Shown here piece after piece: positions 10,274 to 26,269 of a DNA stretch of 64,000 nucleotides. How positions within the stretch are numbered: the first letter of the stretch is position 1; each line of letters begins with the position of its first letter. This DNA comes from an uncultured Trueperaceae bacterium (GTDB lineage Bacteria; Deinococcota; Deinococci; Deinococcales; Trueperaceae), in the NCBI GenBank assembly GCA_963727505.1, contig CAVSGP010000002.1, positions 192,001 to 256,000 of the forward strand, written 5' to 3'. A program made the position numbers and the translations under genes. Below the pieces are notes generated by a model. The model saw only the letters and a list, made by a program, of their open reading frames with translations. It ran no database searches and was not told where the DNA came from.

Positions 10274-10795
10274 ATGCCCGAGCCCCACCACCCCGGGAAC
10301 CTCCGCGCCCGCGCTTCGGCCGGCGAGGTCGAGCGCTACCTGGCCGAGCACATCCCGCTGGCGCGGGCGCTCGGCGCCCGGGTGGAACGCTACGACGCTC
10401 GCGAGCTACGGATCTCCGCGCCGCTGACGCCCAACCTCAACCACCGGGACACCGCCTTCGGCGGCAGCCTCTCGGCCCTGGCCATTCTCGCCGGCTGGGC
10501 CAGGGTGGCCTTCGACTTGCGCGCGCGGGGCGTAAGCGCGCACGTGGTCGTCCAACGCAGCACCGTCGACTTCGATGCGCCGGTGGAGAGCGCGTTCGAG
10601 GTCCGCATCGCGGCCTTCGACGAGGCCGTCTGGGCCACATTCCAACGCACGCTGGCGAGGCGCCGCAAGGCGCGCATCGTTGTCCAGGGCACGCTGCTGG
10701 CCAACGGGGAGCCGGTAGCCCGCTTCGACGCGCGCTACGTGGCGCTCTCCGGCGACGCCGGCACGGCCTCCTCCCGACCGCGCTCGAAGAGGTAG
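10274..10795 (+). CDS. YiiD C-terminal-like hotdog thioesterase
   Basis: HIPLARALG...[18 protein letters not shown] motif; TACAAT 9 nt upstream of ATG10274. Confidence 0.85.
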
Positions 10796-13700
10796 AACGC
10801 CGCTGGGACCACGAAGAACGTGAGCAGCGCCGAGACCAGGATGCCACCGAGCATCACCAGGGCGATGCCGTGGTTGAACTCCGATCCCGCGCCGCGTCCC
10901 AACAACAGCGGGAAACTGATGACCAGCACCGTCAGCGTCGTCATGACGATGGGGCGGAAGCGAAGCCGCGCCGACTCGACCATCGCCTGCTTGAACGGCA
11001 TCTTGCCGATACGCTCGACCACGAACTCCAGGTAGAGGATGGCGTTCTTCGCCGACAGGCCGATCAGCAGCAACATCCCCATGAGGCTGAAGATGTCGAG
11101 CGACTGGCCCTGCACCACCAGGAACCACACCGCCCCGGCCACCGCCAGCGGCACCGGCAACAGCAGATAGATGGGGTAGCGGAAGGAGTTGAACTGCGCT
11201 CCCATCACCAGGTAGGCGAGCAGCAGTGCCAGTGCGAACACCCGCGGCCCCAGGGTACCGAGCTGCCGGGACAGCCCGGCGCGACCGAAGCTGTCCCCGG
11301 CGCCCAGCGTGACGTGGCTGTCCAGCACTCCGGCCTGGGTGAGCTGCTCGGTGATCTGGCGCTGGAACTCGATCGGGCTCGGCGCATCGGCGCTGGGCGT
11401 GATGGAGAAGCGCGCGCTGTACAGGCGGTTGCTGCGGCTGATGCTGATCGGCGCCTGCCTCTCGACGATGGCGCCGAGCTGACTGATCTGGAGGTTGGTG
11501 TGCAACGACGGCGCGTAGATGGGCAACGACAGCAGCGACTGCGCGTCGTGGAGATAGGTGGGATCGAGCTGGACGACGATGCTGTCGCTCTCGCCACCGG
11601 TCTGCACGGCACCGGCGGTGCTGCCGCCGGTGAAGGCGCGCAACGTCTGCGCGACGCTGTTGGCGGAGATGCCGGTGCCGGAGAGCAAGTCGGGATTGGG
11701 CACGAACACGGACTCCGGCGAGGACTGCTGGTTGCCGGCGTCGACGCTCAGCACGTCCGGGTCCCCCGACAGCACCGCCGACACCCGTTGCAGTCGCTGG
11801 TTGAGCAGGGCGTAGTCGGTCGACAGCAGGTCGAACGACACGGCCGAGCCCTGGCCGCGGAAGCCGCCGCCCGTGCGCACGAACACCCGGGCCCCGGGGA
11901 TGGCGCTCGCCGCGCTCTGCAGCGCACCCTGGTACTCGGCGCCGAGCGCGTAGATGCTGGGCCGCTGGGTGACGGGCGCGAGCTGTGCTTGCACGCTGAC
12001 GTCGTTGCTGCTCACACTCGTCTGAACGGTGCGCACCGCCTTCTGCGCCAGCAGGTAGCGCTCCACATTGCCGGCCACCTGGTTGGCGGCGGCCAGGGTG
12101 GTACCGGAGGGCAACCGGGCGCCGATCTGCATCAGGCCGGAGTCGGTCTGCGGCACGAAGTTGAGCGACACCCTGGGGCCCACCACGAACAGCGTGAGCG
12201 CCAGGAAGGCGCCCGCACCCAGAAGGACCAAGGCGCTGAACGGGAGCATCCGTTCGAGCAACGCGGCATAACCATCGCGCGTCCGGCGCAGCCCCGCCTC
12301 GGTCCAACCGTGCAGGGTGGTCGTGAGCGCCTCCAGCGTCGTGAAGACCGCCCTCACCAGATAGGCAAGGACCATCAGCGCCGGCGGGAAGAGCACCAGC
12401 GCGAGCAGGGACAGCGGGGACGCGAAGCGCCACAGAGCATAGGCGCCGGCCGCCACCGCGAGCAACCCGAGCGGCCGACGCCAGGCACGCCAACCCCAGC
12501 GCACGGCGTCGCCGAAGGCGACCAGGCTGCGGCCGGCGTCGCGCCAGCCACGGGGCGGCGCGTCGCCGATGTAGGCCATGCGGACCGTCAGGAACAGGAG
12601 CGCCTCGAGCCAGGAGAGGAACACCGCGGCCGCCAGTCCCAGCCCGAACTGGCGCAGGTAGGCTCCGGCGAAGCCGCCCATGAAGCTCACCGGGATGAGC
12701 ACCGCCAGGATCGACAGCGACGCCGCCGTGACAGCGCCGAACACCTCGCTGGCGCCGCGTAGCACGGCGGTGCGGCGGTCCAGGCCCATCGCGCGGTAGC
12801 GCTCCACGTTCTCGGCAACCACGATGGAGTCGTCGACCACGATGCCGATCGCCACGATGAGCGCCAGCAGCGACACCTCGTTGAAGGTGAAGCCCATCAA
12901 GCCGTAGAGCACGGGCGCGGCGGAGAGCGCGATGGGGATGGCCAGGATCACCGTGAAGGCGGTGTTGAGCCGCCCCAGGAAGAGCAGCACGATGATCGCC
13001 ACCACGATGGCGGTGATCCACAGCTCGTGGAAGGTGGACTGCACCGAAGCCACGATGGGGCCGGTGGTGTCGTTGCTGACCGTGACGCTGTAGCCCGTGG
13101 GCAGCACGGTGCGCTGGAGGTAGGCACGCACGCCGTTCGCCACGGCCACGGCGTTGCTGCCCGACGCCTGCTGGACCGACAGCAGCACTGCCGGCTTACC
13201 GTTGACACGGGTATAGGAGTTGGCGATGGAAGCCTGCTGCACCCGGCCGAGATCCTGCACGCGGACGTTGCGGCTGTTGTCGACCACCATGGTGGCGATG
13301 TCCTGCACGCCGGTGGGCTGGGTGCGGGTGGAGAAGGTGAGGACGTCGTTCTGGCGCGTGATCGAACCGATCGGCTGGTTGACGATGGATGCCCCGATGG
13401 CCTGGCTGACCTGCTGGGGCGCAAGGTTGTAGTAGCTCAACTTGGCGGGGTCGAGCAGCACCTGGTAGCGGCGGCTCGAGCCGCCCGAGACGTTGACGTT
13501 GGCCACGCCGGGCACGAGTTGCAGGGCGGGAACCAGGATGTTGTTGGCGTAGGCGTAGACGTCGTCCATGTTGGCGCCGTTGCCCTGCAGGCCCAGCTCC
13601 AGGATGGGTTGCGCGTTCGGATCGAAGGTCCGCACGATCGGTGAGTTGGCGTCGCTGGGGAGGCCGCGCAGGGCGGCGACCTGTGCCGCCACGGCGTTGG

Positions 13701-14094
13701 CGATGGCGGCCTGGTTGGTATCGGTGCCGAATTGCAGGATCACGCGGCTCGAGCCGGTGCCGCTGTTCGAGCTGATGCTGGTGATGCCGCCCACGGTCGA
13801 AACCGCGGACTCCACCACCTGCGTGACCTGCTGGTCCACCACCGCCGGCGACGCGCCGGGGTAGCTGGTGCTCACCATCACCACCGGGATGTTGGTGGTG
13901 GGCAGCAGATCCACGCCCAGGCGGCTGGCCTCGATCAATCCGAAGACGACCACGCCCACGAAGATGCCAATGGACAGCACGTAGCGAGCCACCGACAACC
14001 CCACCAGCGGGTTGACGCGCGTGGCGACCACCGCGCTGGCTTCCTCGCCCGCACCCCGCGAGGCGGCGGGTTCCCGATCGTCCTCGCCCATCAC
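10735..14094 (-). CDS. RND efflux permease (HAE1/AcrB-like), operon 1
   Basis: [29 protein letters not shown] and RFRPIVMTT motifs. Confidence 0.95.
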
Positions 14095-15745
14095 TGGCCT
14101 CCGCCGGCCGGCGGAGGCCCGCTGCCGCCGGTGGGGCCGCCCGCAGGCAAGCTACGACGGCCCGAAGGGGCCGTTCCGCCGGGCGCCGTACCACTCGGTG
14201 CAGGACTGCCGGGCGCAGGACTGCCGGGCGCAGCCGCGCCGGCGGCCGCGCCACCGTTCCCGTTCGGGACGCCCGCTCCCCGTGCGCTCCGTGCCGAGGG
14301 TGCGCTGCGGTCGCTCGGAGCGCCACCGGCCGACCCGCTGCGGGCCGCCGTGCTGACCTCGGAGCCGTCGAGCAGCCCGGGTGGGGGCTGATCGATGACC
14401 GTCGCCCCCGACGGGACTCCGCTGACGGCTGCGTCGCTGCCGGCCTGCGCCAGGATGGTCAGATCGGTCTGCACCGCCTTGCCGCCCTCGATCAGGAACA
14501 CGAAGGTATTGGTGCCGTCGTTCTGGATGGCGCTGATCGGCACGAGCGTGGCCGTGGCCAGGGTGACCCGGTAGGGCACGGTGCCCACGACGCCGATGGC
14601 GAGCGAGCCGGCCGGCGCCCCCCGCCGCGCCGCCCGTCGGCGCGTCCTGTGCAGTGGAGTGCTGTGCAGCGGAGTCCTGTGCAGTGGCGTCGAAACGGGC
14701 GGTCACTGCGACTCCCTGGTTGACAGGGACACCGGGCCGCTGGGTGACGGTGATCGGGTACTGCGCCACGCCGGTATCGAACGACAGGCGCGTGCCTGCG
14801 GTGAACGCGGCCGCGTCGGAGGGCGGCACCGACATCTGCACCTGCCGCTGCCCGCTGACGAGCATCGCCACCGCCGTGGACGGCCCCACGTACTCGCCGG
14901 GGGCCACGTTGAAGGCAGCGACTTGTCCTGCGAAGGGAGCTCGGATGGTGGCGTTCGCGAGGTTCATCTCCGCCTGCTTGACGCCGTTCTGGGACTGCGA
15001 CACCGCCAGCCGCAACTGCTGCAGGCTTCCGGTCTGGGCGCGCTGGTTCTGCGACGCGTTGTTCTCCGCCGAGGCGACGTTCGCCCGGGCCTGGTCGAGC
15101 TGACTCCTGGCGCTGTCCACGCTGGACTTGGAAGTGCCGCCCAGCGCGTAGACCTTCTGCGCCGAGGCGTAATTCGCCTCCGCCGCCGACAGCGCAGACT
15201 TGGCTGCCTCCAGCTGGTGGTCGAGCTGCGCGACCGCCTGCTCGGTGTTCGTCTGCTGTGTGCTCAGATTGATCTCCGCATTGCTGAGCGACGTCTTGGC
15301 GTTGGCGAGCGCCAGCTCCAGGTTATCGGTGGCAAGCTGCATGATCGGCTGCTGGGCGTGGACCTCGTCCCCCGCAGCCACCAACAGCGTCTTCACGGTG
15401 CCGCTGGCCTGCGCCGCGACGTTGCTCTGCATCACCGCGGCCACCGTCCCCGTCGCGGTGCGGTCGGCCACCAGCGGACCGCTCTTCACCGTGACCGCCT
15501 GTACCTCGACGGTAGCGCCGGTGCCGCCGCCCCCTGCGAACCCGCCACCCGGGGAGCCTCCCGCTCCGCCGCGCGAGAACCCGCCGGCGCCGCCGCGTCC
15601 GCCGCCGGGAAACGCGCCGCCGGGTGCAGCACTGCCGGCGCCGCCGGCGGCGCACCGGAGTGCCCGTGCTACCCCGGAGTGCGTAGCCACCGAAGCCCGC
15701 AGCGACCACCAGGATGATCAGGAGCGCCCAGCCGCGGGCTCTCAC
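14091..15745 (-). pseudogene. RND periplasmic adaptor (MFP), operon 1, split by two +1 frameshifts (real or sequencing artefact)
   Basis: The TM anchor (GTG15745, VRARGWALLIIL), the lipoyl/hairpin core (SGTV..V..GDEV, TIRAPFAGQV) and the C-terminal domain (LVPISAI..VFLIEGGKAV) lie in three different frames. The span is 1655 nt. Confidence 0.8.
14644..14688. repeat. 15-bp tandem repeat x3 inside the MFP (TAQDS/AAQHS/TAQDA)
   Basis: GTCCTGTGCAGTGGA / GTGCTGTGCAGCGGA / GTCCTGTGCAGTGGC. Confidence 0.85.
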
Positions 15746-16845
15746 GGAGCGCCTCCCGACCCCGGCGTCGCCGGCCCCACCAGGCCTGTGAGGTCCTGCC
15801 CGGCCGAGACGGAGAGCGTCACGAGCGCGTTGCGGTAGCCGTCGACGGCCTGCAGCAGGCTGTAGGTCGAAGAGGCGACCGCGACCCCATCGGACTGGAC
15901 CTGGAGGGCGGAAACCGTGCCCGCCTCGAGGGCCGCCCGGTCCTGCTGCAAGACCTGACGGACGTTGTCGAGGTTCTGCTGCGCGATGGCGATGCGGGCA
16001 TCGGCGTCGTGCGCCGCCTGGTAGGCGTTCGCCAGGCTGGTGGCGGCGTTCTGCCGGGCGGTGTCCAGACTTCTCTGGGCATTGTCCAGCGACGTCTTGG
16101 CCGTCTGGTAGGTCATGCGGGGGGTGTAGTCGTTGTCGTAGAGCTTGACCTGGAGCGTGTAGAGCTCGACCGACTGCCGCGCCTGGACCACCGATGGCAA
16201 GCGCTGCAGCAGTCCCTTCTCGAGGTCGGCAAGCTTCGCGGTCACTTGCGGCAGGTCGGGCGGAGCGGAGACCGTCACCGATCCCAGGTCGGTCACGCCG
16301 AGCAGCGTAGCGAGCTGCGCGCCGGCCGCGGGCACCTTGGCCTGGGCGTTGGCAAGGGTCTGTTGGGCGCTCTGCAGCGCGGTCCTGGCCTTGGAGACAT
16401 CGAGTGAGGTGGCATTCCCGTCGCCGAACTTCGCCTGCGCCACCTGCAGATCGCGATCCGCCAGGTCGCGCTGGGCCTGCGCCACCGTTACGTTCTGCTG
16501 TGCCTCGTACAGCGACAGGTAGGCGTTGACGACGCTCTGGAGCACCTGGAGCCGGGTTGCTTCCAGCCCGACCCGGCTCTGCGCGGCCGCCTGCTGCGCC
16601 TGCGTCTTCTGCAGTACCAGCGCCGACGGATCGGCCTGCACCGCCTTGAGCTGGAGCCCCGCGTTGGCCAGGTTGGTCTGGGCGCTGGCCAGCGCGGCGC
16701 CCTGCCCGTAGGCGCGTGCCAGCGCCTGGGGAAGATCGAGGGTGGCGGCCTTCGCCGTCGACGAGGGCTGAGGCGGAACGACGCTCTGCTGCGCCGACGC
16801 CGTCGCGACGAGCAGAGCGACGAGGAGGAACGTGCGGATTCTCAT
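15742..16845 (-). CDS. TolC/OMF-like protein lacking beta-strand segments, operon 1
   Basis: Sec signal MRIRTFLLVALLVATASA; two OEP-type helical repeats (V.NAY..L, F..G.ATSLDV, LEAGTVSALQV); short turns where beta-hairpins normally lie. Confidence 0.85.
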   Translation of the reverse strand: MRIRTFLLVALLVATASAQQSVVPPQPSSTAKAATLDLPQALARAYGQGAALASAQTNLANAGLQLKAVQADPSALVLQKTQAQQAAAQSRVGLEATRLQVLQSVVNAYLSLYEAQQNVTVAQAQRDLADRDLQVAQAKFGDGNATSLDVSKARTALQSAQQTLANAQAKVPAAGAQLATLLGVTDLGSVTVSAPPDLPQVTAKLADLEKGLLQRLPSVVQARQSVELYTLQVKLYDNDYTPRMTYQTAKTSLDNAQRSLDTARQNAATSLANAYQAAHDADARIAIAQQNLDNVRQVLQQDRAALEAGTVSALQVQSDGVAVASSTYSLLQAVDGYRNALVTLSVSAGQDLTGLVGPATPGSGGAP

Positions 16846-18338
16846 GGGAGCCCTCCGGGGGTTGCAGTGAGCTCCCCCAGCGCGTTGCGCAGTTGGAGCA
16901 AAGCCAGGTAGTACGCGTTCTGATCCGACTCCACGGAACGTTGCGCCTGGTCGTAAGCGACGCGAGCGTCGCCGACATCCAGTGCGGTGGCGAGGCCCGC
17001 GGCGAGGCGCGCCTGCGCCGTAGCGAGCGCCTGCTGTGAAGCGGCCAGCGACGCCCGGTCGGCGGCCAGCGACCCCTCGATCGCCTGCCACGTCGCGTAG
17101 CGCTGACGGATGTCGAGCGCAGCGGAGCGCCGGGTGGCCGCCAGCGCCGCCTCGGCGCTGGCCAGCGCGGTGCGGGCAGAGCCCACGGCCGCGTCCGACG
17201 AAGGCGCGTCCAACGGGATGCTCACCGAGGCACCGATGCTGAGCTGGGTGGTGACCGCCCCCGACGCTCCCGGAGCGATGGGATAGGAGACGCTGCCGCT
17301 AGCGACGCCCTTCTGGAAGTCGAGCCCGGCGTTCACGCCGAGGCCTACCTGCGTGCCGCTGGCATCGTGGCTCGTCACCCCGAGGGCGAGGCTGGCGCTC
17401 GGGATCCAGCGCTGCGCGGCACTCACAGACAGTGAGCCCTGGGCCTGCCGGACCCGGATCTGCGCCACCTGCACGTCGTCGCGTCGGGGCACGCCCGCCT
17501 GCACGAGATCGGCGAGCGATCCGGCTGGAGCCGTGGGCTGCGGCGCCACCGTGGTCAAGGGAGCATCGGTCAGGGGCATGCCGAGGGTGTCGAAGAGCGT
17601 GCGGCGAGCGAGGTCGAGCGTGCCGGCCGCCTGGGCCAGGGCGGCCTGGGCTCCCGCCAGCGCCGCCTGCGCCTGGGCCAGCCCCTGATCGCTGAGCTGT
17701 CCCTGGGCGTGTTGCGCCTGGGCCGCGCTCAGCTTCGCCTGCGCCTGCCGGGCCGCGGCCTGGGCCGCGTCGTTGGCGGTGGCCGCCAGACGGGCCGCGA
17801 AGTACTGCTGCTCGACGGTGAGGCGCAGTCCCGCCCGGGCGCTGTCGCGGTTGAGGGCGGCCACGGCGAGCCCGGCCTCGGAATTGGCGATCGAGGCGTC
17901 GACCGGCGCCCACGGCAAGACCGTGGCGGAGGCCGAAACGGAGACCTTGGCGGTCGCTCCGGTGCGGCCGCCCGTGCCCGCCAGGGTGTCGGTGCGGTCG
18001 TAACTGCCGCCGGCCGCCACCTGCAATCCGGCGTTGGCCCGGGCGGCGGCCAGCGCGTCCGCCGCGCTCCGGTAGTCGAGGTCGGCCTTCTGCCAGCCGG
18101 GCGCCTGGGGAAGCGCAGCGAGTGCGTCCGCGAGGGTGAATCCGGGCGCCTCCGCAGGGGCTTGGGCGGGTGGCTGGGCTGGCGTTTCGGCCGGCGTCTC
18201 GGCCGGCGTCTGGGCCGGCGTCTCGGCCGGCGTCTGGGTGGACGCCTGTGCGCGCGCCGGCGGGCCGAGCAGGAACGGGACCAGTACGAGCGCCAGGACG
18301 AGGACCGCCCCCGACGCCCGCATGCGGTTGGGGCTCAT
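16842..18338 (-). CDS. TolC/OMF family outer membrane protein, operon 1
   Basis: Signal peptide, TLADAL start of the OEP fold, VEQQYF, RLAAGLATALDV, and amphipathic beta segments. Start is 18338 or 18323. Confidence 0.88.
   Translation of the reverse strand: MSPNRMRASGAVLVLALVLVPFLLGPPARAQASTQTPAETPAQTPAETPAETPAQPPAQAPAEAPGFTLADALAALPQAPGWQKADLDYRSAADALAAARANAGLQVAAGGSYDRTDTLAGTGGRTGATAKVSVSASATVLPWAPVDASIANSEAGLAVAALNRDSARAGLRLTVEQQYFAARLAATANDAAQAAARQAQAKLSAAQAQHAQGQLSDQGLAQAQAALAGAQAALAQAAGTLDLARRTLFDTLGMPLTDAPLTTVAPQPTAPAGSLADLVQAGVPRRDDVQVAQIRVRQAQGSLSVSAAQRWIPSASLALGVTSHDASGTQVGLGVNAGLDFQKGVASGSVSYPIAPGASGAVTTQLSIGASVSIPLDAPSSDAAVGSARTALASAEAALAATRRSAALDIRQRYATWQAIEGSLAADRASLAASQQALATAQARLAAGLATALDVGDARVAYDQAQRSVESDQNAYYLALLQLRNALGELTATPGGLP
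18165..18237. repeat. 12-bp coding tandem repeat (TPAE/TPAQ linker)
   Basis: GGCCGGCGTCT(C/G) units after the signal peptide. Confidence 0.8.
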
Positions 18339-18470
18339 GTCGCCAAGCGTTCGCCAGGGGCGTGCAGGACTGGCGCGGATCATGTGCAGCTCATGTGCAG
18401 ATGTGCCGATGGCCCGCCGGCGCGGCCGAGACTGGGGGCGGGGCCACAACGCGGCGCGGGACCTGGCTGC

Positions 18471-18501
18471 TACAATCGATAGTTGGCTATGATGAACTTT
18501 T
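18471..18501. promoter_or_regulatory. Divergent promoter region with a candidate MarR operator
   Basis: TACAAT at 18471 followed by AT-rich imperfect inverted repeats (ATAG-TTGG-CTAT; AGTT-N10-AACT). Confidence 0.5.
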
Positions 18502-18583
18502 CGGAAACGCCAATTGTTCTCGCGAGTCGCTCGCCACGAGCGCCGTCGAGCGGGCCCGTGTTCCGTCCCGACCGAAAGCGGTC

Positions 18584-19021
18584 ATGAAGGACGCCCGCTC
18601 GGACACGCGCGCCGGTCTGCTATCCGAGCTTCACGAGACCACCTTCCGCATGATGCGGGTGCAGCGCCAGGTCGCCGACCGGGCCTTCTCGCCCCTCGGC
18701 CTGCGGCCGGTGCAGGCCTTCGCGCTCGCGCTGCTCGGGCATGAGGCCAGCTACCCGAAGGAGCTCGCGCACCTGCTCGACGCTCCGCCCTCGGTGGTCT
18801 CGGTCCTGCTGTCCGACCTCGAGGGGCGAGGGCTGGTGAGCCGAACGGTGGACCCGGCCGACCGGCGCCGGGTACGGCTCGAGCTCACCGCCGAAGGGCG
18901 CCGCACGCTCGATGCCGTCCAACACGCCTGGCTCGACGCCAACGCCCCCCGCCTCGCCCGACTCGGCACGGCAGACCTAGAAGCCCTGGTGCGCATCCAG
19001 AAGGCCCTGCTAGAGGAGTGA
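18584..19021 (+). CDS. MarR family transcriptional regulator
   Basis: ELA..L...PSVVS.LL.DLE.RGLV.R..DP.DRRRV.L.LT.EG motif. Confidence 0.92.
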   Translation: MKDARSDTRAGLLSELHETTFRMMRVQRQVADRAFSPLGLRPVQAFALALLGHEASYPKELAHLLDAPPSVVSVLLSDLEGRGLVSRTVDPADRRRVRLELTAEGRRTLDAVQHAWLDANAPRLARLGTADLEALVRIQKALLEE

Positions 19022-19025
19022 CGCC

Positions 19026-20357
19026 ATGAAACGAACGCTCTTGCTCGCCTTCCTCCTCCTCTTGCCGACGGTCACCGCCCAGTCGGGGCAGGACACACCC
19101 ACGCTGAGCACCTTCCTCGCCCCCCTCGCCGACCAGCCGTCGCTACGGGCGGTGGGCGAGCAGGTGGCCTCGGCCGAGGCCCAGCTGCGGGCGGCCTACG
19201 ACCCGGTCTCGCTGCAGGCGTCGGGGGGGTACACCGCCTTCGACACCACCTCGGTCGATATCAACCCCGCCCAGTCCGGCGTGCAGAACCTGCCGGCCAG
19301 TGGCGGACAGATCTCGGCCGCCGTGACCGTACGCCCCTGGCTTTTCGGCGACACCGCCGACCAGGCCGACAAGAGCCGCCTCCAGCTCGACCAGACCCGG
19401 CTCGACTACCGCGACGCCCTGACCGGCCTCCAGATCCAGGCGGTGCAAGCCGCCTACGGCGTGCAACTCGCCCGCGAGTCGCTGGCCTCGGCCCAGGAGG
19501 GCGAGAAGGTCGCCCAGGCTGCGCTCGACGCCACCCGCTTGCGGAACGACAAGGGAGCGGCCAGCGACCGCGACCTTCGCAGCGCCCAGACCGGGCTCGA
19601 GCAGGCCCGCCAGTACGTGGCCAACGCCAAGGGGGGGCTGGCGCTCGCGCAGACCACGCTCGAGAGCCTGGTCGGCCCCACCGCCGCGCCCGACGTGGCG
19701 GCGTTGACGCTCGAGGTCCCCGACGGCACCGCTCTTTCGGTCCAGAAGGCGCGCCTGAGCGCGAGCCTGGCCGGTGTCTCGGTGCGCAACGCCACCCGCT
19801 CGGTCTACCCCGTCGTGCAGGCCGGTTACACCTGGAACGTCGACAGCAAGGACAGCGTCGGCGTGTCGATCGAGTCGCGCACGCTCCAACCCAAGGTCAG
19901 CTACGGCTTCCAGAGTCCGGGGAGCTCCTTCCCCCAGGACCAGATCAACGGCAGCTTCCAGATCGGCGTGTCGATGACCATCTCCCCCGGTGTCATCGAC
20001 GGCCTGCGGGCCACCCATGCACAGCTCCGCGCCGCCCAGGACGGCGTCGATGCTGCGGTGCGCAGCGCCGCGGTACAGAAGGCGTCGCTCGACAACGATC
20101 TCGCTCAGGCCAAGCGCGCGTTGAGCCTTGCGCAGCGCCAACTCGACGATGCGCACGCCACCCTCCAGGAGGACCAGACCCGCGAGAGGCTCGGCCTGGG
20201 AACCCCCCTGACCACGCAACAGGCGGCGCTGGACCTCACCCAGCGCCAACTCGACCTACAGCAGGCCCGCCAGGACACCCTCGCCAAGACCCTGGCGTAC
20301 TACCGCTTCTACGCCCACCCCCTGGTGAGCCAGACCCCGTCGGAGGTCCAGCCGTGA
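19026..20357 (+). CDS. TolC/OMF family outer membrane protein, operon 2
   Basis: Signal peptide, two OEP helical repeats (AVQAAY, KGAASDRDL, LGLGTPL) and amphipathic beta segments. Confidence 0.87.
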   Translation: MKRTLLLAFLLLLPTVTAQSGQDTPTLSTFLAPLADQPSLRAVGEQVASAEAQLRAAYDPVSLQASGGYTAFDTTSVDINPAQSGVQNLPASGGQISAAVTVRPWLFGDTADQADKSRLQLDQTRLDYRDALTGLQIQAVQAAYGVQLARESLASAQEGEKVAQAALDATRLRNDKGAASDRDLRSAQTGLEQARQYVANAKGGLALAQTTLESLVGPTAAPDVAALTLEVPDGTALSVQKARLSASLAGVSVRNATRSVYPVVQAGYTWNVDSKDSVGVSIESRTLQPKVSYGFQSPGSSFPQDQINGSFQIGVSMTISPGVIDGLRATHAQLRAAQDGVDAAVRSAAVQKASLDNDLAQAKRALSLAQRQLDDAHATLQEDQTRERLGLGTPLTTQQAALDLTQRQLDLQQARQDTLAKTLAYYRFYAHPLVSQTPSEVQP

Positions 20358-21469
20358 AACGCCTCATCTTCGCTCTCGTCGGCGTGTTGCCGCTGCTCCT
20401 GCCCGCCGCGCACGCATTCGGATTCCAGGACGCCCTGCAGGCCGCGCAGACGCGGCCCGACGCCGTGACCAAGCGGCTCGAGCTCCTCAACGACAGCAAC
20501 GAGCTGGTGCGTGTGCAGGGCGATCCCCTCGCCCTCAAGATGGACCTCGTCAAGGCTCAGCAGGCGGTCGCGCTCGATCGCGCCGAACTCGAGAAGGCCT
20601 ACGACGACGCCCTCGTGACCATCGCCCAGGCCTACACGGGCGTCCTCGAGGCGCGCGAGCAGGCGGCACTTGCGGACAAGGGCGTCGAGGTGAGCAAGGC
20701 GTCGCTCGACATCGCCAAGATCCGCCGCACCAACGGCAGCGGCACCGACCTCGACGTGCAGGACGCCCAGGTGTCGCTCGACAACGCCACCAAGAACACG
20801 CAGACCGCCCACAAGAGCCTGGCGATCGCCGAAGCCAATCTGGAGGGCCTGGTCGGGCAGACCCTCGACCCAGGCGCGCTCGAGCCGATCCCCGATGTCT
20901 TCCTGGTGGACGTGCCGTCGACCGACACCGCCACCCAGGCGCTGCCCCACACGCCGCAGCTGCTGCAGTCCCAGCAGGGCCTGGTGCTGGCCCGGCTCGG
21001 GGTCCAGATGCTCGACCCGAGCTACGCATCGGCGTCGCAGATCGAGTCCGCCAAGACGCAGTTACAGACCACCGAGAAGCTCGTCGCCGAAGCGCAGCGC
21101 GGCCTCCAGATCCAGGCCAGGAACCTGGTGGTGCAGGCCCAGAGCGCAGCCGAGTCCTTCCGCATCGAGCAGGACAACCTGGCCAACGCCAACCAGCGGC
21201 TCGGGTTCGCCTCGGACCGGCTGAACGCCGGCCTGATCCCCAAGATCCAGTTCCAGAAGGCGGAGCTCGACCAGCTCCAGGCCAAGCTCTCTGCGTTGCA
21301 GGCGCGCGACGGCTACGTGGTGGCGCTGCTCCAGCTCCAGGCCGGCACCCAGCTCCAGCTGCAGGGCCCGAGCGTCTACGATTTCGCGGCCACCGTGGGA
21401 CCTCTACCCGGCGATGCCGGCGTTGCACCCAGCGGAGGCGCAGGGAACGGTTCCAGCAATGGGCAGTAG
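20354..21469 (+). CDS. TolC/OMF-like protein lacking beta-strand segments, operon 2
   Basis: Sec signal ending AHA; IAQAY..VLEA, NGSGTDLDV and RLNAGLIPK motifs; no beta-hairpins; GTGA overlap with the upstream gene. Confidence 0.85.
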   Translation: MKRLIFALVGVLPLLLPAAHAFGFQDALQAAQTRPDAVTKRLELLNDSNELVRVQGDPLALKMDLVKAQQAVALDRAELEKAYDDALVTIAQAYTGVLEAREQAALADKGVEVSKASLDIAKIRRTNGSGTDLDVQDAQVSLDNATKNTQTAHKSLAIAEANLEGLVGQTLDPGALEPIPDVFLVDVPSTDTATQALPHTPQLLQSQQGLVLARLGVQMLDPSYASASQIESAKTQLQTTEKLVAEAQRGLQIQARNLVVQAQSAAESFRIEQDNLANANQRLGFASDRLNAGLIPKIQFQKAELDQLQAKLSALQARDGYVVALLQLQAGTQLQLQGPSVYDFAATVGPLPGDAGVAPSGGAGNGSSNGQ

Positions 21470-22754
21470 GCCGGCCCGTCACGCGCTCACGGCCCTGCTG
21501 CTGACGCTGGTGCTGGTCCCGCTGACGGCGTGCGGTGGCCGCAAGGCGAGCGACCAGAGCGGGACCCAGCCGGCCGCCGGAACGACCGCCACGCAGACGG
21601 CGGCCGGATCGGCGGGGGCCGCCAGCGACGTGCGCAAGGTACGCGTCGTCCAGCCCCGTCAGGGTCAGCTCACAGCGCAGCGCAGCGCCTCGGTGACCAT
21701 CGACCCGGCCCGCTCGTCGATGGTCGCGGCCGGCACCTCCGGACAAGTGGCGAGCGTGCTCCACCGTGAAGGCGCCACCGTGAAGGCGGGCGAGACGGTC
21801 GTGCAGCTCGACACCACCTCGCTGCAGCTCCAGGTCCAGAACGCCCAGACGGCCCTGGAGAGCGCGAAGGTCAACCTCTCCAAGGCCCAGCAGTCGGCCA
21901 GAGACGGCCTGGCGCAGACCCAGGCCGCGCTCGACGCCGCCCAGCAGAACCTGTCGCTGGCCCAGAGGCAGGTCGACAACGGCAAGAACCTCTACGCCGC
22001 CGGCGGCATCTCCGCCACCGACCTGCAGAGCCTGCAGGCGCAGCTCGCCCAGGCCCAGTCGAGCTACCAGCAGGCCAGGGACGCGGTCGACCAGGCGCAG
22101 CGCGCCGAGACCGAGGACCTCCAGCTCCAGCGGTTGCAGGTGCAGCAGGCCCAGACCCAGCTCGACCAGGCGCGGCACACCCTGGCCGAGGCCACCATCA
22201 CCGCGCCGTTCGACGGCCAGATCGCCGACATGCGGGTCTCCGAAGGCGAGTTCGTGGCGACCGGTAGCCCCGTGTTCCGGCTCGTCTCCGTACGGACCCA
22301 GCTCGCCAAGTTCGATGTACCCCCACAGGACGCGCAGCAGCTCTCCGACAAGGGCGTGGTGTACGTGAGCTACGGTGGCCTCGACTACGCCGCCAAGATC
22401 GTGCGCAGCACCACCGTAACGGGATCGTCGCGGCAAGTGGAGCTTACCGCCAGCGTGTACGCCTCCAAGCACCCCATGCCGATCGGTGCGACCGGCCAGG
22501 TCAACTACCAGGTGACGCTGGCGACCGGTCTGTTGCTCCCGTCCGACGCGCTCAAGACCGACAGCGGCGAGAGCACGGTGCTGGTGGTCAAGGATGGCGT
22601 CGCGACACAGACGAAGGTACAGCTCCAGGCCGAGGTCGGGGGTACCGCCGCGATCCAGGGCCTGCCGGCCGGCAGTCAGGTCGTCTACCCCGTCCCCGGT
22701 GACCTCCTGGCAGGCTCCAAGGTCCAGGTCGTGGGGGGCGCCACGTCGCCATGA
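21459..22754 (+). CDS. RND periplasmic adaptor (MFP) lipoprotein, operon 2
   Basis: Lipobox LTAC; SGQV..V..EGATVKAG, a long coiled-coil hairpin, TITAPFDGQI and LLPSDAL. Confidence 0.92.
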   Translation: MGSRPARHALTALLLTLVLVPLTACGGRKASDQSGTQPAAGTTATQTAAGSAGAASDVRKVRVVQPRQGQLTAQRSASVTIDPARSSMVAAGTSGQVASVLHREGATVKAGETVVQLDTTSLQLQVQNAQTALESAKVNLSKAQQSARDGLAQTQAALDAAQQNLSLAQRQVDNGKNLYAAGGISATDLQSLQAQLAQAQSSYQQARDAVDQAQRAETEDLQLQRLQVQQAQTQLDQARHTLAEATITAPFDGQIADMRVSEGEFVATGSPVFRLVSVRTQLAKFDVPPQDAQQLSDKGVVYVSYGGLDYAAKIVRSTTVTGSSRQVELTASVYASKHPMPIGATGQVNYQVTLATGLLLPSDALKTDSGESTVLVVKDGVATQTKVQLQAEVGGTAAIQGLPAGSQVVYPVPGDLLAGSKVQVVGGATSP

Positions 22755-25700
22755 GACGCCTGGTCCAGTTCTTCGTCAACAACTACGTCCTGACCATCAG
22801 CGTCTTCGGGGCACTGGTGCTGTTCGGCGCCGTGAGCACCCTGAGCCGCGGCATCGAGCTGTTCCCGCCCATCACCGTGCCGGTCATCGCCGTCACCACC
22901 AGCTACAGCGGGGCGGGACCGGAGGAGGTGTCGCGTCAGGTGGCGCAGGCCGAGGAGGGCGCCCTCACCACGCTCCCCGGCATCAGCTCCGTCAGCTCGG
23001 TCAGCTACGAGGGCTACGCCATCGTCATCGCCCAGTTCAACGCCAACGCCGACATCAATCAGGCCGCCATCGACGTGAGCCAGCGTATCTCCCAGATCGG
23101 CAACCAGCTCCCCGACGGCGCCGGCAACCCGACGGTCCAGAAGTTCAACCCCAACGACCAGCCGATCCTCAGCGTGGCGGTCTCAGCGCCCGGTCAGGAC
23201 CTGATGGCCGTACAGAACTACGCCGAGAACACGCTGCAACCCGCCATCGAGAGGGTCAACGGGGTGGCAGACGTGACCGTGGTGGGGCCGGCCAAGGAGC
23301 AGGTGCAGGTCCTGCTCGATCCCAACGCGCTTGCCAACTTCGGCCTGACCCCCCAGCAAGTGTCGAACGCCATCCAGGCGTCGGCGCTCGACGTGCCGGC
23401 CGGCAGCCTGGATTTCGCCAACAGCCGCGTTCTGCTCACGGCGCGCGCCACCCCGACCGATGTCGCGCAGGTGGCGTCGATCCCGGTCGATCCCTCACGC
23501 GGTCTCAGCGTTTCCGATGTCGCCACGGTGCGCGACACCACCGCCAAGCCCACCTCCTACGCGCGCCTCGACGGCGAGCCGGTGGTGCTGCTGCAGGTGC
23601 GCAAGCTGTCGGACAGCAACGCCGTGGCGACCGCCAACGACCTGCGTGCCGCGCTGAAGAAGCTCGACCTGCCGGCCGGCTACAGCACGCAGATCGTGGG
23701 CGATACCACCACCTACGTGGCGTCCAGCGTCTACGACACCCTCCAGGAGATGCTGATCGCAGCGCTCGCCGTCTCCCTGGTCGTGCTGATGTTCGTCGGC
23801 CGGCTCGGCTCGGTGTTCGCCGTGGTACTCGCGATCCCGGTGGCGCTGTCGGGCGCACTGGTGATGTTCTGGCTGTTCAACTACAGCTTCAACATCATCA
23901 CGCTCCTCGCCCTCACCGTCGCCATCGGCCTGGTGGTCGACGACGCCATCGTGGTGGCCGAGAACATCGACCGCTACCGGGAGATGGGGTACGCGCGCCA
24001 CGAGGCGGTGCTCAAGGGCGCCAGCGAAGTCTCAACGGCGGTCCTGGCGGCGACCATGTCGCTGCTGGCGGTGTTCCTGCCGATCTCGTTCCTGCCCGGC
24101 ATCATCGGCCAGTTCTTCGCCCAGTTCGGCATCACCCTGGCGGCCACCGTGGCCTTCAGCTACTTGGAGGCGATGTTCTTCCTGACGGTCCGCCTGGCGC
24201 TGTCGCCAGATCCTTTCCCGCCGTCGTGGCGCGACCTCCCGGCTGCGCTGCGAGCGACGCGCAACGATCTCCGGTGGGGCCTGCACTTCTACCGCAGCGT
24301 CTGGTTCTGGCTCATCGCCCTGGCCGCGGGTGCCGGCCTCGTGCGGGGCCTTGGCGTGCGCTACCTAGCGCTACTGGTGCTTCTGCCGCTGCTGCTGGTG
24401 CTGCTCCGCATGCTCCTGCGCGTTGTGCTCGCGGTGCTCGGGGCGCTCTCGCTCAATCTCTTCCAGGTGGGCGACTTCCTGATCACGCGCACCCGCGACG
24501 CCTACGTGGCGGCGCTGTCGCGCCTGCTCCCGCGATCCTGGATCGTCCTCGTCACGGCCGCGCTGCTGTTCGCCAGCCTGTTCTGGGTGTTCCCGCGCAT
24601 CGGCTTCAACTTCCAGCCGCCGTCGGACACGGGCCAGCTCGTCGTCGACGCCCGTCTACCGGTGGGGACCAGCCTGGCGCGCACCAACCAGGTGGCCACA
24701 CAGATCGAGGCCAACCTGTTGGCCGACCCCATGGTGACGACCGTGCAGACGACGGTCGGCTCCGGCACCCAGGTCGGCGGCGCACTGCCCGAGGACGCCA
24801 GCCTGACCCTGCAGCTCGTCGACAAGAGCCAGCGCAACCGCACCACCAGCGAGCTGGCGGTGGCCGTCCAGGACCGCTTGCGCACGATGTTCGCCAGCCA
24901 CCCGGAGATCCGCATCAGCGTCGGCAGCTCCGACCCCAGCAACGCCCCCACCAACGCCGGCTACGACCTGACGCTGGCGTCGACCAACCTGGACGCGCTG
25001 CGTCAGCACTCCGACCAGGCGGTGGTCGTGCTGCAGAGCGACCCGCAGCTCCGCAACGTCCGCTCCGACGTGTCCTCCAGCTCAACCGAGCGCGTCTTCG
25101 TGGCGGACGCCGCGCAACTGGCGGGCACCGGCCTGACCCGCGCACAGATCTTCCAGGCACTGCGCACCTACAACGTCGGCACCCATGCCGCAACCATGCG
25201 CAAGTCGGGCGTGGAGATCCCCATCCAGGTGATGGCCGATCCCCGCAATCTCGTGAACGAGCAGACCATCCTCAGCCTGCCGCTGTACGCGCCCGGCCTG
25301 CAGACCACCGTCACGCTGGGCGACCTCGGTCACTTCGAGACCCGCCTCGCCCCCGCTGTGATCCGCCGCACCAACCAGTCCTACAGCTCCGACGTGACCG
25401 CTGACCTGGCGCCGGGCGTGACCCAGTCCGAGGCGAAGCAGCAGGCGCACCAGCTGTTGGTGGCTGCCGGGGTGCTCGACGCGCAAGTGGTGCAGACCAC
25501 CAGCGGGAACCTCGACCTGCTGGGCGACCTGCTCAAGTACGGTCCGATCGCGTTCGCACTGGCGCTGCTGCTGAACTACCTGGCCATCGGTAGCCAGTTC
25601 AACTCCTTCAAGTATCCGCTCTACCTGTTGCTGACGGTCCCGCTGGCGCTGGTCGGAGCGATCTGGCTGTTCTACTTCACCGGCAACTCGCTCGACGTGA

Positions 25701-26269
25701 TCAGCATCCTGGGGGTGGTGATGCTGGTGGGTCTGGTCACCAAGAACGCCATCCTGCTCCTGGACGTGACCATGCGGCGGGCCTCCGAAGGGGACGACCT
25801 CTACGCCGCTCTGGTGGAGGCCGGGCGTGTGCGCTTCCGGCCCATCGTGATGACCACCCTCACCGTCGTGGTCATCAGCATCCCGTTGATGGTCGGCGCC
25901 TCGCAGGGAGCGGAGTTCCGCTTCCCGCTGGGTCTGGTCATCGTGGGGGGCGTGCTCAGCTCGGCGCTGCTGACCTTCTTCGTCGTGCCTGCCGCCTTCT
26001 ACCAGTTCGAGCGCAAGCGCTACGAGCGACTGGGGGCGGCGGCCGTCCCGCGTGGCGGCGCGGCCCCGGACGCCTCACCCAGCGGCGGCGGCGCGGGTGG
26101 CCCGGTAGAGCGCGGGCAAGACCGCTCCCCCCGGAGCGGTGGACCCGGCCCCTCGCAGCGACGTCCGAGCAGCGCGAGCCCGCACACCGGTAGCCCGAAC
26201 ACCGCCACCGAACGCAGTCGCGCACGCACCGAGCCCGGAAACCCCGACGAGGCGACCGGGGGCCGCTAG
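22751..26269 (+). CDS. RND efflux permease (HAE1/AcrB-like), operon 2
   Basis: YSGAGPEEV, IGLVVDDAIVVAEN, GLVTKNAIL and RFRPIVMTT motifs. Confidence 0.95.
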   Translation: MRRLVQFFVNNYVLTISVFGALVLFGAVSTLSRGIELFPPITVPVIAVTTSYSGAGPEEVSRQVAQAEEGALTTLPGISSVSSVSYEGYAIVIAQFNANADINQAAIDVSQRISQIGNQLPDGAGNPTVQKFNPNDQPILSVAVSAPGQDLMAVQNYAENTLQPAIERVNGVADVTVVGPAKEQVQVLLDPNALANFGLTPQQVSNAIQASALDVPAGSLDFANSRVLLTARATPTDVAQVASIPVDPSRGLSVSDVATVRDTTAKPTSYARLDGEPVVLLQVRKLSDSNAVATANDLRAALKKLDLPAGYSTQIVGDTTTYVASSVYDTLQEMLIAALAVSLVVLMFVGRLGSVFAVVLAIPVALSGALVMFWLFNYSFNIITLLALTVAIGLVVDDAIVVAENIDRYREMGYARHEAVLKGASEVSTAVLAATMSLLAVFLPISFLPGIIGQFFAQFGITLAATVAFSYLEAMFFLTVRLALSPDPFPPSWRDLPAALRATRNDLRWGLHFYRSVWFWLIALAAGAGLVRGLGVRYLALLVLLPLLLVLLRMLLRVVLAVLGALSLNLFQVGDFLITRTRDAYVAALSRLLPRSWIVLVTAALLFASLFWVFPRIGFNFQPPSDTGQLVVDARLPVGTSLARTNQVATQIEANLLADPMVTTVQTTVGSGTQVGGALPEDASLTLQLVDKSQRNRTTSELAVAVQDRLRTMFASHPEIRISVGSSDPSNAPTNAGYDLTLASTNLDALRQHSDQAVVVLQSDPQLRNVRSDVSSSSTERVFVADAAQLAGTGLTRAQIFQALRTYNVGTHAATMRKSGVEIPIQVMADPRNLVNEQTILSLPLYAPGLQTTVTLGDLGHFETRLAPAVIRRTNQSYSSDVTADLAPGVTQSEAKQQAHQLLVAAGVLDAQVVQTTSGNLDLLGDLLKYGPIAFALALLLNYLAIGSQFNSFKYPLYLLLTVPLALVGAIWLFYFTGNSLDVISILGVVMLVGLVTKNAILLLDVTMRRASEGDDLYAALVEAGRVRFRPIVMTTLTVVVISIPLMVGASQGAEFRFPLGLVIVGGVLSSALLTFFVVPAAFYQFERKRYERLGAAAVPRGGAAPDASPSGGGAGGPVERGQDRSPRSGGPGPSQRRPSSASPHTGSPNTATERSRARTEPGNPDEATGGR

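Follow-up and report, generated by a model that had tools for sequence, protein, structure and literature searches.

A TolC-family protein without a barrel as a candidate spacer of four-component efflux pumps in a Trueperaceae bacterium

The stretch of DNA studied here (hereafter, the window) comprises 64,000 nucleotides (nt) of an uncultured Trueperaceae bacterium of the Deinococcota (assembly GCA_963727505.1, contig CAVSGP010000002.1, positions 192,001 to 256,000), in which two divergent pump operons flank a MarR-family gene. Both operons encode, in this order, a long outer membrane factor (OMF; hereafter L), a short OMF (S), a periplasmic adaptor and a resistance-nodulation-division (RND) transporter, and each thus holds the transporter, adaptor and OMF of a tripartite RND pump. 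On the basis of sequence comparisons and covariation, the four products probably act in series, as L3-(S3)n-adaptor6-transporter with n at least 1. That several S3 rings are stacked head-to-tail across a wide periplasm is put forward more tentatively, as a prospect falling slightly short of even.

In such a pump, the six-strand protomers of an L homotrimer would close an 18-strand outer membrane barrel above a normal 12-helix tunnel, and S would form a separate soluble homotrimer, a double-ended alpha-barrel of about 10 nm in length. The inner end of S3 would keep the OMF tips that receive the adaptor hexamer, and its outer end would present six helix-turn-helix tips that mimic those of the adaptor and interlock with L3, or with a further S3, at the inner end of that trimer. 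Stacking such rings, whose number we infer, as we do the substrate, would extend the duct so that it spans a wide periplasm and a thick peptidoglycan.

Strands, turns and helices of the two outer membrane factors

All four OMFs match the outer membrane efflux protein (OEP) family PF02321 twice, with 63–125 bits versus a gathering cut-off of 22, and the best PF02321 stretch of each S begins at profile position 85–86; scores for the curated families TIGR01844 (TolC) and TIGR01845 (NodT) stayed below the cut-offs (24–70 bits versus 210–225). No other two-repeat OEP protein was found in the genome, where adaptor hairpins account for the remaining OEP matches. TolC contributes four strands per protomer, with 12 strands and 12 helices per trimer (PMC8277102, section 58). 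A first-pass annotation, made from the letters of the window alone, had read a different pattern here, namely two plus four strands in L and mere turns in place of the hairpins in S. AlphaFold2, run on the operon-2 proteins, bears out both readings. In L (75-sequence alignment; predicted local distance difference test, pLDDT, 91.4; predicted template modeling score, pTM, 0.84), strands were placed at mature residues 38–48, 69–79, 240–248, 253–260, 267–274 and 286–293, that is, 2+4, and in S (92 sequences; pLDDT 96.2; pTM 0.89) eight helices and zero strands were obtained.

For operon 1, the strand evidence comes from a rough amphipathic-strand counter, which recovered the strand segments noted earlier in L. 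According to this counter, which overcalls (e.g., 3–4 strands on canonical repeat-1 windows), repeat 2 has at least three strands in all but 10 of the 199 L-profile proteins (189), and these 10 are database matches of canonical look. The occupancy of strand 5 was 0.48 in the mixed L alignment, which reflects subfamily misalignment. The turns that replace the hairpins of S are of nearly fixed size, since among 518 non-monoderm S proteins the turn 1 span is 31 or 33 residues in 503 and the turn 2 span is 33 residues in 507. The L/S strand pattern is not due to chance.

Although neither protein, as modeled, has the four strands per protomer that define an OMF (six in L and none in S), both keep the TolC helical fold. 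Helices H3 and H7 span 67 and 68 residues in L and 65 each in S, which are the dimensions of a TolC-like alpha-barrel protomer (H3/H7 of about 67 residues, plus H2/H4 and H6/H8). The periplasmic tip glycines were conserved at weighted frequencies of 82% and 95% in S and of 84% and 99% in L. The S model aligned with a template modeling (TM) score of 0.81 to 9tg4, which we take to be pump-bound TolC, versus 0.70 to 1ek9, and the corresponding values for L were 0.66 versus 0.68; this is only a hint from models that the S fold, unlike that of L, may be nearer pump-bound TolC than 1ek9. Gate residues did not clearly separate S from L (D/E six residues past the second tip Gly, 44% versus 79%). PDB sequence searches gave weak TolC/OprJ matches only, and a solved barrel-less or six-strand OMF was absent among the fold-search matches listed. 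Signal peptides were judged by eye. The earlier description of S as bearing a cleavable signal and no lipobox is right about the lipobox, a lipobox-like motif being found in 0 of 257 S-family proteins, but this does not set S apart, as Cys is absent from all four OMFs. A low-complexity (TPAE/TPAQ)n linker follows the signal peptide of operon-1 L (window 18140–18250, minus strand), and its length differs among related runs.

Three assemblies had been offered in the first-pass annotation: (a) a 2:1 heterotrimer, in which the strands come from two L protomers (6+6) and a single S makes up the rest of the 12-helix tunnel; (b) an interleaved L3S3 ring, with an 18-strand barrel above a widened, 24-helix tunnel; and (c) a barrel-less trimer that extends the tunnel. 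The heterotrimer reproduces the TolC count exactly (12 strands, 12 helices) and would suit the equal helix lengths of L and S. However, AlphaFold3 homotrimers of two TolC proteins of Brachyspira pilosicoli (BP951000_RS05600 and RS09000) have six strands per protomer, like L by strand count, and 18-strand barrels (10.1101/2025.01.03.631275), so that L needs no strandless partner in principle. These are AlphaFold3 models only, and the available text of that source mentions no barrel-less partner, unlike the pair described here. A six-strand-like OMF (strands by eye) was also seen in two genomes in which no S turned up. In idealized geometry with assumed shear, an 18-strand barrel has a radius of 16–18 Å, which suits the short L strands, and nine residues rise 23.8 Å in it versus 18.6 Å in a TolC-like 12-strand barrel; the 8–11-residue strands of L suit the lower tilt of the 18-strand barrel better than the 12-strand barrel of the heterotrimer.

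Putative contacts of S within and between rings

In TolC, H2/H4 and H7 lie on opposite edges of the protomer (PMC8277102, section 58); their covariation within a family therefore marks a homo-oligomer, and its register can be predicted from the internal repeat. S-only alignments comprised 427 rows (401 distinct; effective number of sequences, Neff, 244), with 149 sequences added later and a full set of 550; frameshifted or truncated L genes and rows with gaps over 20–30% were excluded from the alignments. The null consisted of site-independent simulations on the tree, and S residues are numbered on the mature operon-2 protein (window 20417 = residue 1). In the S-only alignment, H2-H7 peaked at register 236 (predicted, 237) and H4-H7 at 374 (predicted, 374), scores that were reached by 1 and 5 of 165 simulations, respectively. 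The H2-H7 peak was repeated both in the 149 new sequences (0/200 null runs) and in all 550 (0/89). An S-S side contact is moderately supported by these covariation data. It does not sit well with the heterotrimer, where S has no S neighbor.

For L alone, the lower L-L register was found at 516–518 versus 518 expected (no null), and at Neff 117–142 no barrel-closing strand pair was detected and the upper register was mismatched (345 versus 335 expected). The interleaved ring would preserve C3 symmetry, and translational coupling of the genes suggests the near 1:1 synthesis that would suit it. Nevertheless, it needs only L-S side contacts, whereas S-S contacts are supported and the lower L-L register was also seen, and it would set 12 tips against a six-membered adaptor ring, known pumps being 3:6:3 and tip-to-tip. 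We consider it very improbable.

The strongest covariation cluster of S not explained by these registers links outer turn 2 (196–207) with inner tip 1 (97–113). Its two ends sit at opposite ends of the 65-residue helices, about 95 Å apart in the monomer, and its pairs include Y203-I99, Y203-I102, M198-S108, S205-S108, S202-S108 and P201-N106. Eleven pairs exceeded z = 3, versus a null mean of 3.2 and a maximum of 9 (0/165); 4–9 such pairs remained in both motif subfamilies and in six random halves, nine were found in the 550 sequences (0/89), and six, which were different pairs, in the new set (4/200). The pseudo-likelihood method returned the same cluster. When 10,647 overlapping blocks away from the known registers were ranked, the first 25 all fell in this region. 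The simplest physical reading of these sequence data would be that consecutive S3 rings interlock outer end to inner end, much as an adaptor hexamer engages TolC. This cluster, which the first-pass annotation had missed, suggests several stacked rings, and it is left unexplained by the heterotrimer.

Comparison with the adaptors is consistent with that reading. Aligned with hhalign to the adaptor hairpin tips of these operons, outer turn 2 scored 82% in register (12–38 on 12–38), turn 1 28% and the inner tips 95–96%. The adaptor arm itself aligned at 85% off register, so that coiled-coil likeness contributes to these scores. In the hhalign register, M198 takes the place of the L of the RLS motif, and M198-S108 corresponds to the MexA L100-OprM V200 contact (PMC6447562); tip contacts between AcrA and TolC have likewise been described (PMC5404916). 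The outer turns are conserved like the inner tips (entropy of 2.0–2.1 versus 2.6).

Several results weigh against the series arrangement and the stack. Only one of four top-bottom blocks was enriched, and all four jointly were not significant (7/89; 52/200), and the head-to-tail block was first noticed post hoc. Fourteen pairs mapped from MexA-OprM, a mapping made after the first signal was seen, had a mean z of 0.67 in the full set (3/89) and of 0.0 in the new set. H4-H7 was not repeated in the new set (188/200), reached 18/89 in the full 550 and was no better than a decoy with the pseudo-likelihood method; moreover, the null cannot mimic subfamily-wide shifts. In paired L-S covariation, S-top/L-tip gave 11 pairs, not significantly more than the 7.5 of the null (48/306; Neff 101), in an underpowered comparison. 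Finally, paired S-L-adaptor alignments (124 rows, Neff 74; 194 rows, Neff 101) gave noise for both side-by-side and tip-to-tip L-S contacts. The putative L-S contact is deduced from the linkage of the two genes and the resemblance of their products at the inner tips.

Distribution of the pair and occurrence of S alone

The S profile matched 134 of 151 Deinococcota genomes. Of the 17 others, 12 had no OEP match at all and five had a single stretch, which was a solo divergent OMF in two genomes and, in one each, a fragment of L, an unrelated fragment and a scrap at a contig end. Of the 155 distinct S genes of Deinococcota, 152 have an OMF frame as their immediate upstream neighbor, the exceptions being two at contig ends and one (G017) truly without L; loci L103–L107 were left out of the pair counts. 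The L-S-adaptor block occurs both with RND and with MacB-type ATP-binding cassette (ABC) transporters. This phylum-wide linkage supports the earlier claim of a conserved, functional four-component pump. In other genomes, L or S genes at L054, L099, L112 and L161 are split into several frames.

Among diderm Bacillota, the pair was also found in Limnochordia and 'Clostridiales' metagenome-assembled genomes, in the order adaptor-RND-S-L and with a four-strand repeat 2 by eye. A broad S profile matched 125 of 201 sampled Bacillota genomes, some of the matches being long OMFs. Several Bacillota partners of S (L199, L201, L202, L292, L295, L313, L314 and L340) show, by eye, two strands in repeat 2 and what seem to be additional strands in repeat 1, which suggests that the extra hairpin was gained more than once. 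The co-occurrence of extra hairpin and barrel-less partner in Deinococcota would be expected of the heterotrimer, but these two-strand repeats 2 would not. In a quick tree, the S proteins of both operons clustered together, apart from L proteins, and the L/S split is therefore older than the operon duplication. S-like ESM Atlas clusters (322–332 residues) have Spirochaetota and Pseudomonadota as their commonest taxa, and barrel-less OMFs may be spread more widely.

The two solo divergent OMFs (L105:228-2082, G106; L104:168-2574, G065) have a repeat 2 with four strands by eye, and S was not found in their genomes. Both adjoin a same-strand multi-heme cytochrome c gene, with relatives in five of the five family-f4 genomes tested, and a porin-cytochrome-like module is possible. 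A long protein known from Logan only, P0228 (1246 residues; cluster of 3), was considered as a natural L-L-S fusion and rejected, since it is a triple fusion of canonical-looking OMF units, its six OEP repeats amounting to a whole TolC trimer in one chain. It was the only long match among the best 150 representatives, which included no L-S fusion; the homologue searches were restricted to near lengths, and no proper fusion search was made.

S also occurs without L. Many Bacillota loci hold a lone S after adaptor and RND genes, as in an operon of the order MFP-RND-S-TetR (MFP, membrane fusion protein, i.e., the adaptor). Omp85 was searched in 70 genomes of the Bacillota sample, possibly incomplete and related to each other, of which 40 were picked for a lone S at a locus and 30 because one or more of their loci have L or a different OMF next to S. 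Omp85 was absent from 38 of the 40, the two that have it also carrying a strand-bearing OMF, and present in 30 of the 30 (a few unresolved); as controls, genomes of Thermus and Deinococcus gave matches. Among the 38 Omp85-less genomes, 14 had between them 46 OEP matches, none of which started before profile position 66. To judge from these gene sets, the barrel-less OMF evidently functions without a barrel-bearing partner, and an obligate 6+6+0 trimer cannot explain its presence there. We regard the heterotrimer as quite unlikely. Of the three original assemblies, (c) is thus the one favored, with (a) and (b) disfavored by S without L and by the S-S covariation. In L352:3721-7373 (G316) and other Omp85-less Bacillota loci, the lone S has a turn 1 about 8–20 residues longer and a YTPNVY-type turn 2; at L352 it is followed by TetR and a secreted protein with, by eye, an S-layer-anchored look.

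Such loci also agree with a different reading, according to which S3 is a terminal duct on the adaptor that releases substrate beyond the peptidoglycan, presumably its role in monoderms too, with L3 as a separate co-expressed or alternative adaptor-docked channel and no fixed L-S contact. In genomes without Omp85, S by itself is enough for MFP and RND, and the inner tips of L are as adaptor-like as those of S. In addition, a Deinococcota genome scored as 100% complete, G017, has a TetR-S-adaptor locus without L (C4, L170:1536-2711) and no other OEP match; it is either a decayed pump or a natural S-only case. On the other hand, an OMF lies directly upstream of nearly every Deinococcota S, the genes overlap here, and the conserved, adaptor-tip-like outer turns would be unneeded at a free exit. 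This terminal duct seems to us unlikely. The series pump with S3 between L3 and the adaptor has a further difficulty in the monoderm S proteins, which have the longer turn 1, branch apart from Deinococcota S in the quick 51-row tree (deep support weak) and may represent a separate barrel loss.

Gene features, envelope width and related systems

Feature coordinates are compiled in Table 1. The L and S genes, described as translationally coupled in the first-pass annotation, overlap by 4 nt in both operons; an overlap of this size also joins the S and adaptor genes of operon 1 and, in operon 2, those of adaptor and RND. The long adaptor hairpin reported in that annotation also stood, as it measured 130 residues (64+66), and 139 of the 146 rows of the family fell at 130–149. 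In this assembly, the reading frame of the operon-1 adaptor is broken. Base 14614 is absent from contigs of three of four related runs (X1, X2, X4) and base 15653 from one X1 contig (one of four runs), so both frame breaks are probably assembly errors and the gene is probably intact in the population. Named homologues came from Deinococcales, Meiothermus, Calidithermus and Deinococcus. No RNA data set was listed as carrying the sequence.

Table 1. Genes and predicted elements of the two pump operons, in window coordinates.
Feature	Position	Strand	Properties and basis
L (long OMF, TolC family), operon 1	16842..18338	-	498 aa; 2+4 amphipathic strands; PF02321 twice; rough strand counter; clusters with L proteins in tree
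S (short barrel-less OMF), operon 1	15742..16845	-	367 aa; turns ADPSAL and DNDYTP; clusters with operon-2 S (SH-aLRT 96, quick tree)
Periplasmic adaptor (MFP), operon 1	14091..15745	-	Frame split by apparent one-base insertions in assembly
RND transporter, operon 1	10735..14094	-	PF00873, E 4.8e-183
MarR-family regulator between the operons	18584..19021	+	PF12802; start read from sequence; stop 4 nt before operon-2 L
L (long OMF), operon 2	19026..20357	+	443 aa; six-strand protomer (AlphaFold2); Foldseek to TolC/OprM, TM 0.65-0.70
Four-strand repeat 2 of L, operon 2	19812..19973	+	Mature residues 240-293; DSSP on model; alternating hydropathy in family
S (short barrel-less OMF), operon 2	20354..21469	+	371 aa; all-helical (AlphaFold2); VIA Z 24.0 to TolC in 8zar, rmsd 3.4 over 317 residues
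S outer turn 1, operon 2	20516..20545	+	Mature 34-43, GDPLAL; weak adaptor-tip likeness (hhalign 28%)
S inner tip 1, operon 2	20705..20755	+	Mature 97-113, H3-H4 turn, Gly107; covaries with outer turn 2
S outer turn 2, operon 2	21002..21037	+	Mature 196-207, LDPSYAS; adaptor-tip-like (hhalign 82%)
S inner tip 2, operon 2	21200..21250	+	Mature 262-278, Gly272; Gly in 95% of weighted S sequences
Adaptor (MFP), operon 2	21414..22754	+	Open reading frame limits, true start probably a later ATG; 130-aa hairpin; TIGR01730 above cut-off
RND transporter, operon 2	22751..26269	+	PF00873, E 3.1e-200

L and S share with TolC, OprM and CusC (PF02321) the two OEP repeats, the eight-helix fold, the tip glycines and an operon with an adaptor and an RND or MacB-type ABC transporter; they differ from the four-strand protomers of those OMFs in their strand numbers, in the presence of two OMF types per operon and in the fourth component proposed in series. 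TolC-like proteins of monoderm Firmicutes, which the S-only Bacillota loci resemble, lack the barrel domain as S does (omitted in a Phyre2 model), are encoded in pump operons of genomes without the beta-barrel assembly machinery (BAM) and were proposed to serve as a terminal duct in the S-layer (PMC8809574); the available text of that paper makes no mention of Deinococcota, of stacking or of a barrel-bearing OMF as partner. The Treponema pallidum operon TP0966-TP0969 likewise has several OMF paralogues per pump operon, but according to the text available all four were modeled with four strands and proposed to act in parallel (PMC8407342).

The closest functional analogy to the proposed stack, and an analogy only, is mycobacterial TiME (Rv3705c/MSMEG_6251), whose stacked rings form a tube across a thick envelope; its ring pairs are tail-to-tail, and the text available gives no link to OMFs (PMC8378821). 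TiME was absent among the fold matches listed for the S model. Its octameric-type rings are reportedly unrelated to pumps. In the literature searched, with limited coverage of subscription journals, neither the L+S pair nor a stacking of OMFs was found to have been described. Predicted 18-strand TolC trimers (Brachyspira) and barrel-deficient TolC in monoderms were known before; the L+S pair and the stacking were not found there. The wording 'barrel-less' in PMC10665443 and its preprint was set aside, as in the text available it refers to MlaD and not to OMFs, and 10.64898/2026.03.07.710327 has, as far as its available text goes, no bearing on the pair.

MexAB-OprM is about 320 Å long (PMC6447562), and the periplasm of D. 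radiodurans measures about 90 nm, versus about 30 nm typically (PMC8688812), with a peptidoglycan of 44 nm, an SlpA layer of 35 nm and outer membrane invaginations (PMC12088418). Estimated gains in length are roughly 5 nm from the long adaptor and about 10 nm per S3, so that, by arithmetic, about six rings would be required in D. radiodurans; fewer could do if the outer membrane invaginates. The width in D. radiodurans, taken by analogy, may moreover not be that of the Trueperaceae host, which is a further caution about the stack.

Tripartite pumps are fixed at about 32 nm, versus the roughly 90 nm of the D. radiodurans periplasm, and a modular spacer derived from TolC would be a concrete, testable answer to how efflux and secretion cross it. 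We hold it possible, though slightly more doubtful than probable, that a self-stacking S3 pipe of adjustable length (about six rings per 90 nm) is the standard exit of RND and MacB-type transporters in Deinococcota and diderm Bacillota, the same module crossing the monoderm wall. If true, this would explain the TolC-like proteins of monoderm Firmicutes, the assembly of which was left open in the text available (PMC8809574). S would then be a living all-helical OMF, relevant to the proposal that a helical protein of the periplasm gave rise to the TolC barrel. A 10-nm protein tube that is soluble and can be stacked would also be useful as an engineering part. Thousands of 'TolC family' annotations may include non-membrane proteins.

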